51,479 nucleotides of DNA from Patescibacteria group bacterium (GCA_038064015.1 JBBTUB010000012.1:1-51479); one strand, 5' to 3'. Shown: positions 20,972-40,658, numbered from the stretch's first letter. Notes: generated by a model from the sequence alone, not told the origin. Numbers and translations: made by a program.

Positions 20972-21063
20972 GGAGGAGTCGGATAGCGGTCAATTCCGCC
21001 TCTTTGCTAAAGAGGTTGCCGGGTAAAACCGGCTCGAGGGTTCGAATCCCTCCTCCTCCGCCA
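20972..21063 (+). tRNA. tRNA-Ser (anticodon GCU), class II, CCA encoded
   Basis: Acceptor GGAGGAG/CTCCTCC, anticodon arm CCTCT-TTGCTAA-AGAGG, long variable arm GCCGGGTAAAACCGGC, T arm GAGGG-TTCGAAT-CCCTC, then G-CCA. Confidence 0.9.
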
Positions 21064-21645: not shown

Positions 21646-21732
21646 GGAGAGGTGGCTGAGCGGTCGAAAGCAGCGGTTTACTAAACCGCCGAACCCGTAA
21701 GGGTTCCGTGGGTTCGAATCCCACCCTCTCCG
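21646..21732 (+). tRNA. class II (Ser-type) tRNA with apparent anticodon ACU
   Basis: Acceptor GGAGAGG/CCTCTCC, anticodon arm GCGGT-TTACTAA-ACCGC, variable arm GAACCC-GTAA-GGGTTC, T arm GTGGG-TTCGAAT-CCCAC, discriminator G. Confidence 0.75.
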
Positions 21733-21755
21733 CAAAAGTGTGATATGCTTCAGCT

Positions 21756-34771: not shown

Positions 34772-37549
34772 ATGTCCCAAAATCTTTTCCCGCTCCAGAA
34801 CGAAGAACTCAAGGAAATCATGGAGCAGCCCCAGCAATCGCGAGGATTATCCTGGGCGAGGCTTTTTGGCGAAGGCGATCCCTATGACGCGATTACCTGG
34901 GAGCGGCGAGATGCGCGCATTACCAAAGGGAGCGGCAAGGTTGTGTTTGAGCAAACCGATATCGAAGTTCCCAGTTTTTGGTCGCAGACCGCGATCGACA
35001 TCGTCGCTTCGAAGTATTTTCGCGGCAAGCTCGGCACGCCCGCGCGGGAGACGAGCGTCAAGCAGATGATCAATCGCGTCGCCGACACGATTTCCGGCTG
35101 GGGATTCAAAGACGGCTACTTCGCGACTGCGGAGGATTACCAAAATTTCAAATACGATCTCCGATATCTCTTGGTCAACCAGTATGCGGCGTTCAACAGC
35201 CCCGTATGGTTCAATGTCGGCGTCCATGAGCGGCCACAATGCTCCGCATGCTTCATCCTTGCCGTGGAAGACAACATGCAGTCGATCCTGGAGTGGTACA
35301 AAGACGAAGGATGGATTTTTAAATACGGATCGGGATCAGGGACCAACTTGTCCAAGCTCCGCTCATCAAAAGAGCAGTTATCACGAGGCGGTTATTCTTC
35401 AGGCCCTGTCTCGTTCATGAAAGGCGCCGATGGCGTTGCCAACAGTATTCGCTCCGGTGGCACCACACGCCGCGCGGCCAAGATGGTGGTGCTCAATGTC
35501 GACCACCCGGATCTCAAAGATTTTATCTACTGCAAGAAAAATATCGAAGAGATGACCCGCATTCTCGAGGCGAGTGGCATCCAAAATTCCATCGAGGGCG
35601 ATCTTTTCTCTCCCTATACGCTCTTGCCGTATCAAAATGCCAACAATTCAGTGCGCGTTACCGATGAGTTTATGAAGGCGGTTGAAGCAGACCGTGATTG
35701 GGATTTCAAAGCCGTCACCACGGGAGCAACGATTGAAACCCACAAAGCCCGCGAGGTGATGCACTGGATCTCCGACGCCGCGTGGCACTCGGCCGATCCG
35801 GGAATGCAATACGACACCACGATCAATGACTGGAATACGGTTTCCAATACCGGGCGCATCAATGCGTCCAATCCCTGCAGCGAATATATGCACCTGGACA
35901 ACAGCGCCTGCAATCTTGCTTCGATCAATTTGCTTCGTTATCTCAAAGAAGATGGATCGTTTGATGTGGAGCTTTATAAGAAGACCATTGATACGATTAT
36001 CACCGCGCAAGAAATCATCGTCGGCAATTCTTCATATCCCACCGAGCGCATCACCCGAAATGCCATGGACTATCGCGAGCTTGGCCTCGGCTACGCCAAC
36101 CTTGGCTCACTCCTGATGAACCTGGGGCTGCCCTACGACTCCGATGAGGGGCGCGCCATCGCAGGGGCGCTGACCTCGATCCTATGCGGGGAAGCCTACG
36201 CGCAATCCGCCCGGATCGCCGCGATCACCGGGCCATTCGCCGGCTATGCCACCAACCAGGAGCCGATGCTCAACGTCATCAAGAAGCACGGTGCCGCCGC
36301 GGAGCAGCTTGCAGCCGGCGCGGTCACCGGAAATGGCCACTTCGCGCCGCCGGAACTCTTTCAGACCAGCGTCAATGTGTGGCGCGAAGCGCTTGACCTG
36401 GGCCGCCAGTATGGCTACCGCAACTCTCAAGCCACCGTGCTCGCTCCCACCGGCACCATCGCGTTTCTCATGGATTGCAATACCACCGGGATCGAGCCGG
36501 AGTTGGCGCTCGTGAAGTACAAAAAGCTTGTGGGAGGTGGCACGCTCAAGCTCGTGAACGCGCAAGTGCCCGCGGCGTTGCGCCAGCTCGGCTACAACGA
36601 GCAGGAGATTTCCGATATTGCCGCCTATCTGGTAGAAAAAGAAACCGTCGAGGGGGCGCCGAACATAAAGGAAGAGCACCTCCCGGTCTTTGATTGCTCC
36701 TTCAAGGCGGCCAATGGCTCGCGCACGATTGGCTACATGGGGCATGTCAAAATGATGGGCGCGGCTCAGCCGTTTATCTCGGGAGCAATTTCAAAGACCG
36801 TCAATCTTCCCACTGAGGCTACGGTGGATGATATCCGCAACGTATTTATCGAGTCTTGGAAACTGGGCCTCAAGGCCGTGGCGGTCTATCGTGACGGATC
36901 CAAGTCAGTCCAGCCGATGAGTACCACCGAAGCCAAAGACAAAAAACTGGTGGAGCATGCCAACGGCTATACACGTATCAAGCTTCCCGATGAGCGCCCG
37001 TCGATCACGCACAAATTTGCCATCGGCAATCACGAAGGCTACCTCCATGTCGGTATGTATCCTGACACCAAGAAGGTAGGAGAGACGTTTATCACGATTG
37101 CGAAAGAGGGGAGTACGATCTCGGGACTCTTGGATGTTGTCGCGACGCTTGCCTCGATGTGCTTGCAGTCCGGCGTACCCCTCAAAGTGCTGGTCAAGAA
37201 ATTCAAAGACATGCGATTCGAGCCATCAGGCATCACGACCAATGCCGATATCCCGTTTGCCAAGTCATTCATGGACTATATCTTCAGGTATCTCGGGATG
37301 AAGTTTTTGAACGAAAAAGACCGCGAAGAAATCTTTGGGCCCTCGGAAACGCCGGTTGACACGGTGGCCGCCCCGGCAGTCACTCCTGCCATCACTCCAG
37401 CACCCGCCCCCGTCAATTCCGGATGGGATGACGTAAAAGAAGCTCACACTGACGCGCCACTGTGCAGTGAGTGCGGCACGATGATGTTTCGAGCCGGCTC
37501 CTGTTTCTCGTGTCCCAATTGTTTCGCCACCACCGGCGTTTGCAACTAA
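34772..37549 (+). CDS. nrdJ: class II adenosylcobalamin-dependent ribonucleotide reductase
   Basis: 925 aa. NPCSEY active-site loop, TGIEPE, AISKTVNLP, and a C-terminal CxxC...CxxC tail (CSECGTMMFRAGSCFSCPNC). Confidence 0.95.
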   Translation: MSQNLFPLQNEELKEIMEQPQQSRGLSWARLFGEGDPYDAITWERRDARITKGSGKVVFEQTDIEVPSFWSQTAIDIVASKYFRGKLGTPARETSVKQMINRVADTISGWGFKDGYFATAEDYQNFKYDLRYLLVNQYAAFNSPVWFNVGVHERPQCSACFILAVEDNMQSILEWYKDEGWIFKYGSGSGTNLSKLRSSKEQLSRGGYSSGPVSFMKGADGVANSIRSGGTTRRAAKMVVLNVDHPDLKDFIYCKKNIEEMTRILEASGIQNSIEGDLFSPYTLLPYQNANNSVRVTDEFMKAVEADRDWDFKAVTTGATIETHKAREVMHWISDAAWHSADPGMQYDTTINDWNTVSNTGRINASNPCSEYMHLDNSACNLASINLLRYLKEDGSFDVELYKKTIDTIITAQEIIVGNSSYPTERITRNAMDYRELGLGYANLGSLLMNLGLPYDSDEGRAIAGALTSILCGEAYAQSARIAAITGPFAGYATNQEPMLNVIKKHGAAAEQLAAGAVTGNGHFAPPELFQTSVNVWREALDLGRQYGYRNSQATVLAPTGTIAFLMDCNTTGIEPELALVKYKKLVGGGTLKLVNAQVPAALRQLGYNEQEISDIAAYLVEKETVEGAPNIKEEHLPVFDCSFKAANGSRTIGYMGHVKMMGAAQPFISGAISKTVNLPTEATVDDIRNVFIESWKLGLKAVAVYRDGSKSVQPMSTTEAKDKKLVEHANGYTRIKLPDERPSITHKFAIGNHEGYLHVGMYPDTKKVGETFITIAKEGSTISGLLDVVATLASMCLQSGVPLKVLVKKFKDMRFEPSGITTNADIPFAKSFMDYIFRYLGMKFLNEKDREEIFGPSETPVDTVAAPAVTPAITPAPAPVNSGWDDVKEAHTDAPLCSECGTMMFRAGSCFSCPNCFATTGVCN

Positions 37550-38840: not shown

Positions 38841-38842
38841 AG

Positions 38843-38914
38843 TGCCGGCGAAAAGAGTCGAACTTTTGTCTGGTCGTTATGAGTGACCTGTTCTAACCGT
38901 TGAACTACGCCGGC
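38843..38914 (-). tRNA. tRNA with CAU anticodon (elongator Met, or Ile2 if lysidinylated)
   Basis: Acceptor GCCGGCG/CGCCGGC, anticodon loop CTCATAA (A31-C39 mismatch), T arm AAAAG-TTCGACT-CTTTT, discriminator A. Confidence 0.85.
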
Positions 38915-39591
38915 TTTCGTGCATCTAAAAACCCCGATATTAGCCCTAGTATTCTATACAATAAATCGGTTCCTTTCAACATTCGAAGCCGAAAGGTACC
39001 AAAATATTCGTCGTGGTTTTCGTAGCGCTTGTTTTGTTTTGATTGTAAGAAAACAGTACTCTGGAAACGATCAAGAGGAAGTTTAAGATATGTGGCCCAA
39101 TATTCCTTGATCTTGCGATCGCGAGATTTGTGAATTTTATTAATGGAAACCCTGAAGGTAAAGTTGTTGGGCGAAAGAGAAAAAAATCTATAAAACCAAT
39201 GCAACATGAACTTGATGACTTCAGGATCGGAATTCACAAAATCAATATTGCGATTCTTCTTCGATCCCTCGGCTAAATACAGCATCAAACCTGCGACAAA
39301 GTATTCTTCCTTGGAAATATTTTGAAAAACTTCTTTTCCTTCTTGGCGATATAATTCTATTCTCGCAAGTCGCTTCTTCTTATTAACTAAAGCGCCATTG
39401 AGTTGTCCTTGCCGGACCGCGCCCTGTTTAAGTTGCGTGAGTGCTTCATTTTGTTCTTTAGTTAGTTCAATATCCCTACACCAATAACTAATCGTGCTCT
39501 TGGGCATCTTGAGTAGGCGAGCTATGTCTTTGATGCTTCTGCCGTTTTTGCGTAATTTCCTTGCTTGAATTCTTATCTGTGATTTTGCCAT
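38905..39591 (-). CDS. free-standing HTH + LAGLIDADG-like putative homing endonuclease
   Basis: N-terminal HTH (GRSIKDIARLLKMPKSTISYW), a single LAGLIDADG-like motif YFVAGLMLYLAEGSKKN, AT-rich codons, and a stop codon inside the 5' end of the tRNA. Confidence 0.5.
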   Translation of the reverse strand: MAKSQIRIQARKLRKNGRSIKDIARLLKMPKSTISYWCRDIELTKEQNEALTQLKQGAVRQGQLNGALVNKKKRLARIELYRQEGKEVFQNISKEEYFVAGLMLYLAEGSKKNRNIDFVNSDPEVIKFMLHWFYRFFSLSPNNFTFRVSINKIHKSRDRKIKEYWATYLKLPLDRFQSTVFLQSKQNKRYENHDEYFGTFRLRMLKGTDLLYRILGLISGFLDARKPA

Positions 39592-39646
39592 ACCCTAGAG
39601 TTATTATACTGATGTTAGTATAGCACGGGTACAGAAATAGATAAAG

Positions 39647-39674
39647 TTGATAACTTTCTGGGGTGTGCTATGCT
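39647..39674 (+). promoter_or_regulatory. promoter for tRNA-fMet (TTGATA-16-TGcTATGCT)
   Basis: TTGATA at 39647-52 and an extended -10 TGCTATGCT ending at 39674, 16 nt before the tRNA 5' end. Confidence 0.45.
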
Positions 39675-39690
39675 GTAACCAGTTACCAAT

Positions 39691-39969
<279 letters not shown>

Positions 39970-39980
39970 CAGTCGTTTAA

Positions 39981-40122
39981 CAATTCCTGCAAGGTGAAGT
40001 GGGTGAAATTCCCACGCTGTCGCGCAACGGTTATAGCCCGGTCCCATGCAGTGGTAATTATACCGCCCGCGTCAGGCACTTAGGTTTTTTATAACACAAG
40101 GATCCCGCCGCGGCGGGATTTA
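39981..40122 (+). promoter_or_regulatory. cobalamin (B12) riboswitch candidate plus downstream hairpin
   Basis: AAGGUGAAGUGGGUGAAAUUCCCACGCUGUCGCGCAACGGU (39991-40031) matches the conserved AAGGGAA..GGUGAAAAUCC...GCUGUCCCGCAACUGU core. A GUCAGGCAC B12-box-like element lies at 40071-79. Hairpin ATCCCGCCGCGGCGGGAT plus TTTAT ends at 40124, before ATG 40128. Confidence 0.6.
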
Positions 40123-40127
40123 TCGTT

Positions 40128-40658
40128 ATGGTGAAGTATCTTCTTGGCTGGTTAGTGGTATTCGCGATTCGTCTCATGCCGTTTCGTCCGGCTAATGTCG
40201 AGCCGCTCATGGCGACGCTGATGCCGTATTCCAAAAAATATGGCTGGATCGGTGGATTTGTTTTCGCGTTTTTCGGCATCGTACTGTTCGACGTGGCCAC
40301 CGGCAACGTCGGCCTCTGGACGTGGATCACGGGGGGAGTCTATGGGCTCATCGGTACCGGCGCGTACTTCTACTTCAGGAATCGCCCCGCCACCGCAAAG
40401 AATTTTGTCATCTTCAGCGTCCTCGGCACACTCGTCTTTGACGCGATCACGGGACTTGGCATCGGGCCGATCTTTTACGGCCAGCCTTTCATGCAGGCGC
40501 TGACAGGGCAGATCCCATTTACGCTCAGGCACCTTTTGGGTAACGTTGTGTTGGCGCTGTTCGTCGCTCCGGCAATCTATCGCTGGGTCGTTGAAAATCC
40601 CATATTCGCGACGCGGTTGCTCTGGAATCGGTTGGCACATCATGCTACCATACGGTAA
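40128..40658 (+). CDS. polytopic membrane protein, ECF S-component/DUF6580-like; putative corrinoid uptake
   Basis: About 6 TM helices and an N-terminal IRLMPFRPANVEPLMA motif. The function is inferred only from the upstream riboswitch candidate. Confidence 0.65.
   Translation: MVKYLLGWLVVFAIRLMPFRPANVEPLMATLMPYSKKYGWIGGFVFAFFGIVLFDVATGNVGLWTWITGGVYGLIGTGAYFYFRNRPATAKNFVIFSVLGTLVFDAITGLGIGPIFYGQPFMQALTGQIPFTLRHLLGNVVLALFVAPAIYRWVVENPIFATRLLWNRLAHHATIR

Follow-up and report, generated by a model that had tools for sequence, protein, structure and literature searches.

Most known free-standing homing endonucleases come from phages and organelles, and the group I introns of bacterial transfer RNA (tRNA) genes mostly lack an open reading frame (ORF). 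Here we describe a 228-amino-acid (aa) ORF in a stretch of DNA of 51,479 nucleotides (nt) from a Patescibacteria group bacterium (GCA_038064015.1, JBBTUB010000012.1:1-51479; the window, in what follows, is this whole stretch). The ORF combines an N-terminal helix-turn-helix (HTH) with a single LAGLIDADG-like domain, and is wedged between the genes for the elongator tRNA-Met and the initiator tRNA-fMet, the latter split by a group I intron. It behaves like a mobile selfish insert, with presence/absence polymorphism at one site among close relatives and with decayed copies. Judging from sequence comparison and structural models, we consider it fairly probable that the ORF is a free-standing homing-endonuclease gene, which lands at tRNA genes, takes them as its homology arms and carries the intron along.

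Free-standing homing endonucleases, intronless homing and collaborative (trans) homing are all established (PMC3984707; PMC2790892; PMC2330249; PMC6083498). SegB of phage T4 is a free-standing GIY-YIG homing endonuclease encoded in the T4 tRNA gene cluster (PMC2330249). The present ORF resembles it as a putative free-standing endonuclease gene among tRNA genes, and the spread of SegB likewise carries flanking tRNA-region DNA along. However, SegB has another nuclease fold, is phage-borne and neither abuts nor overlaps a tRNA gene, and it is a single case, whereas the ORF family has one clade per tRNA. Trans homing is exemplified by T4 mobE, paired with the I-TevIII-defective nrdB intron (PMC2790892), and by cyanophage F-CphI, paired with the psbA intron (PMC6083498). 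In these pairs the target has been shown to be the intron-insertion site, whereas for the ORF family such a target is hypothetical; many of its members have no intron nearby, and the host gene here is a tRNA gene in a cellular genome.

The ORF product shares several features with LAGLIDADG enzymes such as the homodimers I-CreI and I-CeuI and the second domain of I-DmoI. The motif helix of the family ends in E-G and is followed by a beta-hairpin, the family profile is similar to I-DmoI, and the predicted alpha-beta-beta-alpha-beta-beta-alpha core is matched at Z scores of 4-7. As in the homodimeric enzymes there is one domain per chain, and the distribution is patchy and site-specific. The family differs in being encoded by neither introns nor inteins, in its N-terminal HTH, 44-residue helix and extra core helix, and in being missed by the Pfam LAGLIDADG models; unlike that of the known enzymes, its nuclease role is putative. 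WhiA demonstrates that a LAGLIDADG domain joined to an HTH can be domesticated (PMC3984707). The ORF joins the same two elements, and WhiA/DUF199 is its best structural match (Z 7.0). In WhiA, however, the LAGLIDADG domain is present twice and the HTH is C-terminal, the matched structures measuring ~280-300 residues; in the ORF family there is a single domain, the HTH is N-terminal, E108 is conserved, and the 0-9 copies are patchily distributed.

Presence of the ORF differs among close relatives of the window. The nearest one found is a metagenome contig, L164; its pyrH, which neighbours the site, shares 93% identity with that of the window. Its gene order is an intron-less tRNA-fMet, a spacer of 82-86 nt, tRNA-Met (72 of 73 bases identical to the window's), pyrH and tRNA-Asp, with no ORF. 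The tRNA-fMet exons align without a mismatch (79/79), and from base 1 of tRNA-Met the two sequences are homologous again (200/215); between the two tRNA genes only noise aligns, save for the last few spacer bases beside tRNA-fMet. In the window, 772 nt stand in place of the 82 nt of L164, and the 205-nt intron is the only other difference; the ORF and the intron were gained or lost together in this closest comparison. In the congener G001, a gap of 67 nt separates tRNA-Met from an intron-less tRNA-fMet, again with no ORF, while a second congener (G002) and L176 have both the ORF and the intron at the site. A mobile origin, with which the original prediction had found the position of the gene against a tRNA consistent, is supported by an empty site in the nearest relative and by occupancy that varies within the genus, and the comparison of synteny that it suggested found ORF and intron missing together from L164 and G001.

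Other tRNA sites are likewise occupied differently from congener to congener. The window's own genome (G000, 744 kb) has family copies at Met, Gly(GCC) and Trp and one without a tRNA; in G002 the copies at Met and Gly are accompanied by a truncated one at Tyr and, at Trp, by a decayed remnant; and G001 has a copy at Ile(UAU) and a fragment at Ser(GGA). We also observed that assemblies of close relatives break at or just past tRNA-fMet (L164 at position 1; G001 at position 3 of C5 and at the end of C1; L166; L167). These breaks may reflect strain-level polymorphism of the intron and ORF, or tRNA repeats.

What stays constant throughout the family is not the intron but a tRNA gene that directly follows the ORF. 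The final 10 nt of the ORF, comprising its last codons and stop, are nt 1-10 of tRNA-Met, and the stop codon TAG occupies tRNA nt 8-10; that the stop lies 10 nt inside the 5' end of the tRNA had been noticed from the sequence. At 56 related loci in species-representative genomes, a same-strand tRNA-Met usually begins within a few bases of the ORF end, and 31 further copies in relatives precede Lys(CUU), Gln, Ile(GAU), Ile(UAU), Glu, Gly(GCC), Gly(UCC) and other tRNAs. Overall, ~83% of 122 distinct members are followed within 250 nt by a tRNA on the same strand. The stop codon falls inside that tRNA in 56 of the 100 members having one, and exactly at tRNA nt 8-10 (UAG) in 24 of them. A FastTree phylogeny groups the proteins by downstream tRNA, with 30 label changes against 70.8 in shuffles and none of 200 shuffles giving as few; the Lys(CUU) clade mixes Patescibacteria and Omnitrophota. 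The possibility that the element carries a spare tRNA was ruled out, since the abutted gene at 38842-38914 is the only non-initiator CAU tRNA, and thus the sole elongator tRNA-Met, of G000, in which AUA is read by tRNA-Ile(UAU).

The ORF is visibly richer in AT than its neighbours, as first noted: its GC content is 0.393 against 0.528 for the remaining locus, 13 points lower (0.38-0.40 along the ORF and ~0.52 in the flanks). The GC of the ORF is below that of its flanks in 107 of 110 family loci and correlates with host GC (r 0.78). In the spacer towards tRNA-fMet, a promoter-like TTGATA-16-TATGCT faces the tRNA-fMet gene and a TATAAT lies 11 nt ahead of the ATG of the ORF. A further promoter-like site lies within the 3' end of the ORF (Table 1), from which tRNA-Met may be transcribed, or else via read-through. 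Such sites are weakly enriched in family ORF 3' ends across 91 loci, with at least 10 of 12 consensus bases in 9 against 1, and at least 9 of 12 in 17 against 12.

The ORF is not a chance reading frame, because one search returned 54 full-length homologues and a second 1,512 representative clusters at E<=1e-10 (3,451 at E<=0.001). Nearly all of these proteins are unnamed and from Patescibacteria, with some from Omnitrophota. The family was found in 35 of 41 relatives, at 0-9 copies per genome of 0.5-1 Mb; several copies have internal stops or are fragmentary, and it was not found in several genomes of this set that are 95-100% complete. Two of the three further copies in G000 directly precede tRNA-Trp and tRNA-Gly(GCC), and the C11 copy belongs to a clade without a downstream tRNA. 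A phage vector is not indicated, because tblastn found no match to the family in a phage collection and IMG/VR held only four weak relatives; on a contig from a viral collection, tRNA-Val follows a relative of 28% identity. We also observed domain-only ORFs of 173-247 aa without the HTH (profile positions 91-205) in L149 (G027:C5), L151 (G028:C9) and L154 (G031:C5), all 41-102 nt from a group I intron, with tRNA-Met downstream in the first two and no tRNA called in L154. Many domain-only proteins were also returned by the representative search, for example rows of 158-180 aa.

The two peptides singled out in the original prediction are found at residues 17-37 and 97-113 of the ORF product. The first belongs to the predicted N-terminal HTH, which is matched by Pfam HTH_38, HTH_23 and HTH_28 under their curated cut-offs (E 1.6e-5 for HTH_38, up to 3.6e-4), is present in the model, and structurally matches resolvase and transposase HTH domains (Z 5-6); its R14 and W37 are invariant in the family. 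Searches of Pfam, NCBIfam and PHROGs gave HTH matches only, and phmmer against PDB sequences gave no match. The second peptide contains the LAGLIDADG-like motif, whose putative catalytic residues are conserved in 323 relatives (E108 97%, G109 99%, K111 91%). In the family profile, its core AGLMLYLAEG aligns with GLYVAEGDK of I-DmoI, the match to the second LAGLIDADG domain of that enzyme (E 0.0011) spanning the motif helix, the hairpin and the next helix.

The predicted structure points in the same direction. The AlphaFold model has a predicted local distance difference test score (pLDDT) of 91 at full length and 94 for the LAGLIDADG domain alone, with one extra helix inserted in the core. When the domain model was compared with VIA-align, the best seven matches were all LAGLIDADG domains, at Z 5.9-7.0 and root-mean-square deviations (rmsd) of 2.8-4.2 over 79-92 residues; they comprise WhiA, the TliVMA intein endonuclease, I-DmoI, I-Vdi141I and E-DreI. 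I-CeuI, I-MsoI, PI-PfuI and I-CreI, the last of which the original prediction had named for comparison, rank lower; a second structural comparison agreed with this. Two structurally similar clusters in the ESM Atlas are automatically named 'Homing endonuclease LAGLIDADG domain-containing protein'. On this evidence we accept the LAGLIDADG fold with good but not complete confidence, and the profile and structure matches suggest a free-standing gene of homing-endonuclease type, as had been supposed. Structurally similar HTH_23 proteins of 279-311 aa also occur in Actinomycetota in the ESM Atlas (TM by query 0.66-0.78), and the architecture may therefore extend past Patescibacteria. A transposase of an insertion sequence (IS) was rejected: NCBIfam IS630, IS3 and IS1 models score 12-18 bits against cut-offs of 100-160, in the HTH region only, there is no transposase domain, and no terminal inverted or direct repeats flank the 772-nt insert.

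In the mechanism that we favour, a homodimeric HTH-LAGLIDADG enzyme would recognise the ORF-less tRNA-fMet/tRNA-Met intergenic allele and cut it at or near the 5' edge of a tRNA gene, and the break would be repaired from an ORF-bearing allele. The near-invariant flanking tRNA genes, conserved even between phyla, would serve as homology arms. Copying would take in the whole inter-tRNA segment with the ORF and its promoter, and co-conversion would add the group I intron in tRNA-fMet. We propose that its tight packing, which extends to the first base (+1) of an essential tRNA present in one copy, renders the insert harmless without any intron, intein or splicing of its own. More speculatively, with the stop codon inside the tRNA, RNase P cleavage of an ORF-tRNA co-transcript would give a stop-less messenger RNA (mRNA). 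The nuclease activity, cut site, dimerisation and direction of transfer in this scheme are those that we infer. The family proteins probably act as homodimers: the long helix at residues 45-88 is a possible dimerisation element, and together with the small residues G101 and A/G107 of the motif helix it is compatible with such an assembly. A more sweeping version would make the family the mobility engine of ORF-less group I introns in Patescibacteria tRNA genes, with tRNA pairs as universal landing pads and homology arms between distant lineages, and with RNase P cleavage, stop-less mRNA and transfer-messenger RNA (tmRNA) tagging allowing tRNA maturation to throttle endonuclease output. We give this combined version little credence.

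Several observations weigh against a homing endonuclease at this locus. The empty and occupied spacers have no common sequence, and the insertion point and target therefore cannot be read from them. No Pfam LAGLIDADG_1, LAGLIDADG_2, LAGLIDADG_3 or WhiA model matches the ORF protein at E<=10, nor are Pfam LAGLIDADG models among the 25 most-matched families for 63 relatives (E<=0.1). The protein hence lies outside those Pfam families as now built, and the Pfam match first expected is replaced by the profile and fold evidence. The VIA-align Z scores are all below 8, a range in which the tool warns that a match can mean a common arrangement, and the top match, WhiA, is a domesticated non-nuclease. 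Foldseek against the PDB, with either the full or the domain model, ranks no LAGLIDADG structure; its weak OmpA-like and IspF rows (rmsd ~7-13 Å) were not used. The identity of the ORF drops with host distance, from 59% in the same genus to 51% in the same family and 46-47% in the same order, so vertical descent with loss fits as well as homing. Finally, loci with the ORF only (~18) and with the intron only (at least six: G006, L166, L167, L129, L132 and L134) both exist.

Some of these points would also suit a domesticated, WhiA-like LAGLIDADG-HTH DNA-binding protein, which would regulate the following tRNA gene or serve another host role at tRNA loci, and would be vertically inherited with frequent loss. 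Such a regulator would agree with the rank of WhiA and the presence of an HTH, with a gene directly upstream of a tRNA and probably co-transcribed with it, with the promoter-like site for the tRNA within the ORF, and with an ORF whose identity tracks host relatedness and whose GC follows that of the host. However, the catalytic-type glutamate is almost always retained in the family, whereas the only role described for WhiA, which has a LAGLIDADG fold, is that of a co-opted transcription factor (PMC3984707). A copy number of 0-9 with pseudogenes and fragments, several nearly complete genomes in which the family was not found, the ORF-less tRNA-Met of the closest relative and of one congener, and the different tRNAs that would be 'served' in different congeners are also difficult to reconcile with a host function. 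The ORF moreover evolves much faster than the neighbouring pyrH, with 59% against 82% identity between G000 and G002. We therefore consider a domesticated regulator rather unlikely.

The relationship with the intron bears on a second alternative, strict collaborative homing. Here the target would be the intron-insertion site in the anticodon loop of an intron-less tRNA-fMet, the ORF would mainly be the mobility engine of the intron, and the intron would shield the host allele from cutting. The intron is itself ORF-less, as 205 nt are too short for an ORF, and Rfam matches it at 39716-39922 (RF00028, 61.4 bits). The ORF start lies 139 nt from it and 100 nt from the tRNA-fMet gene, in keeping with the proximity originally reported. 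Where ARAGORN saw no upstream tRNA at family loci, an opposite-strand group I intron usually sits at the tRNA-fMet position, as in the window. In counts that are not phylogenetically independent, an intron-bearing tRNA-fMet adjoins ~40 ORFs of the Met clade and an intron-less one ~18. In the set of 41 relatives, the intron accompanies every one of the five full-length ORFs at the fMet/Met site, and it occurs without the ORF in at least four genomes. A comparable enrichment occurs at tRNA-Phe: a family ORF lies between Phe and Gly(GCC) at eight of the nine tRNA-Phe genes that bear an intron, two of the ten ORFs at this site accompany an intron-less Phe, and the Phe intron is found in only ~1 of ~30 ORF-less genomes. 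Together with the joint absence in L164 and G001, the joint presence in G002 and L176, and the mobE/I-TevIII and F-CphI/psbA precedents (PMC2790892; PMC6083498), these associations are what strict collaborative homing would lead one to expect.

All four combinations of ORF and intron nevertheless occur. The ~18 ORFs beside an intron-less tRNA-fMet keep the catalytic glutamate and, under strict collaborative homing, would cut their own locus; intron-only loci occur as well. Most ORF clades (Lys, Ile, Trp, Gln, Arg and Gly-UCC) have no intron nearby, and no family ORF accompanies the introns of tRNA-Thr(UGU) (nine cases), His, Asn, Asp, Ser and Arg. Close linkage by itself would also yield an association. 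Strict collaborative homing thus appears quite unlikely to us. Of the mobility link to the intron that the original prediction raised, the joint gain or loss in the closest comparison and the enrichment at fMet and Phe stand, while the ORF clades without introns and the tRNA introns without ORFs, which are the majority on each side, speak against it as a general rule; the link is real but secondary. Returning to the homing-endonuclease gene that we favour, we read the intron as a passenger or partner in close linkage, which is co-converted along with the ORF but would not be the reason for the family to exist.

A trans-acting maturase, also raised originally and by which an RNA-binding LAGLIDADG protein would aid the folding or splicing of the tRNA-fMet intron, has precedents that include one bacterial example (PMC3984707) and would suit a gene near an ORF-less intron, but it is most improbable because seven relatives have ORFs and no detected group I intron (G003, G009, G013, G021, G022, G024, G035) and four have introns and no ORF (G006, G020, G039, G040), and G000 has four paralogues for one group I intron, while the HTH and the conserved glutamate point to DNA.

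Table 1. Features of the tRNA-fMet/tRNA-Met locus and paralogues of the ORF in the same genome (G000). Positions are those of the window, except for the paralogues.
Feature	Position	Strand	Basis or remarks
HTH + single LAGLIDADG-domain ORF, free-standing, homing-endonuclease-like, 228 aa	38905-39591	minus	ATG start; AF2 model pLDDT 91.3; many homologues
Insert (ORF and upstream region), 772 nt, in place of the 82-nt spacer of L164	38915-39686		Pairwise alignment with L164
N-terminal three-helix HTH, residues 3-38	39478-39585	minus	Sub-threshold Pfam matches and model
Single long helix, 44 residues (45-88), joining HTH to nuclease-like domain	39328-39459	minus	Secondary structure of model
LAGLIDADG-fold domain (predicted), residues 92-227	38911-39318	minus	alpha-beta-beta-alpha-beta-(alpha)-beta-beta-alpha; profile and structure matches
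LAGLIDADG-like motif YFVAGLMLYLAEGSKKN, residues 97-113	39253-39303	minus	Putative catalytic E108, G109, K111
Promoter-like site TTGAAA-17-TAGAAT in ORF 3' end	38951-38979	minus	37 nt upstream of tRNA-Met; 10/12 consensus match
Elongator tRNA-Met(CAU)	38842-38914	minus	ARAGORN and Rfam
Spacer, ORF start to tRNA-fMet	39592-39690		Divergent promoter-like sites
Initiator tRNA-fMet gene, exons 39691-39729 and 39935-39971	39691-39971	plus	C1-A72 mismatch; GGG/CCC anticodon stem
Group I intron, 205 nt, ORF-less, splitting tRNA-fMet	39730-39934	plus	Borders from alignment to intron-less relative
Paralogues (L082-L084)	C11:3267-3932; C22:3548-4198; C15:53801-54436	plus; minus; minus	24-28% identical to ORF

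New features are the combination of an N-terminal HTH, a long helix and one LAGLIDADG domain, the systematic position directly against tRNA genes with one clade per tRNA, and the scale of the family in Patescibacteria. Our literature searches found no published description of the family. The tRNA-fMet intron type has been catalogued (Williams, 2020; 10.1101/2020.01.27.920355), and the part of that work drawn on here does not mention a neighbouring ORF. If the proteins cut DNA, a family of more than 1,500 clusters, unannotated and now labelled hypothetical or 'XRE-type regulator', would be a selfish nuclease lineage specialised on the tRNA loci of reduced genomes. It would then offer a concrete mechanism for co-mobilising ORF-less tRNA introns, and a source of compact LAGLIDADG scaffolds, assisted by an HTH, in which many specificities occur naturally. 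The family would also account for recurrent assembly breaks and annotation oddities at Patescibacteria tRNA clusters, such as ORFs that run into tRNAs.

Group I introns within genes for tRNAs are very common in this order (G001-G040), where they were observed in Thr(UGU), fMet, Phe, Asp, Asn, Ser(UGA/GGA), His, Arg(GCG) and Thr(GGU). Up to 10 group I intron matches were found in one relative genome, and some loci have two adjacent split tRNAs. In the window, a match to the AdoCbl-II (cobalamin) riboswitch directly follows tRNA-fMet (39984-40054, plus strand; 37 bits against a cut-off of 36.5 bits). Downstream of it is a hydrophobic ORF of 176 aa (40128-40658, plus strand), which the riboswitch may control and which may serve B12 uptake, and an ORF of 925 aa resembling ribonucleotide reductase, with a Cys-rich C-terminus, lies 2 kb away (34772-37549, plus strand). 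Elsewhere in the window, ARAGORN predicted a tRNA-Ser with the anticodon ACU, which has an unusual A34 (21646-21733, plus strand); Rfam confirms it as a tRNA (58.5 bits), and it adjoins a tRNA-Ser(GCU) at 20972-21063.

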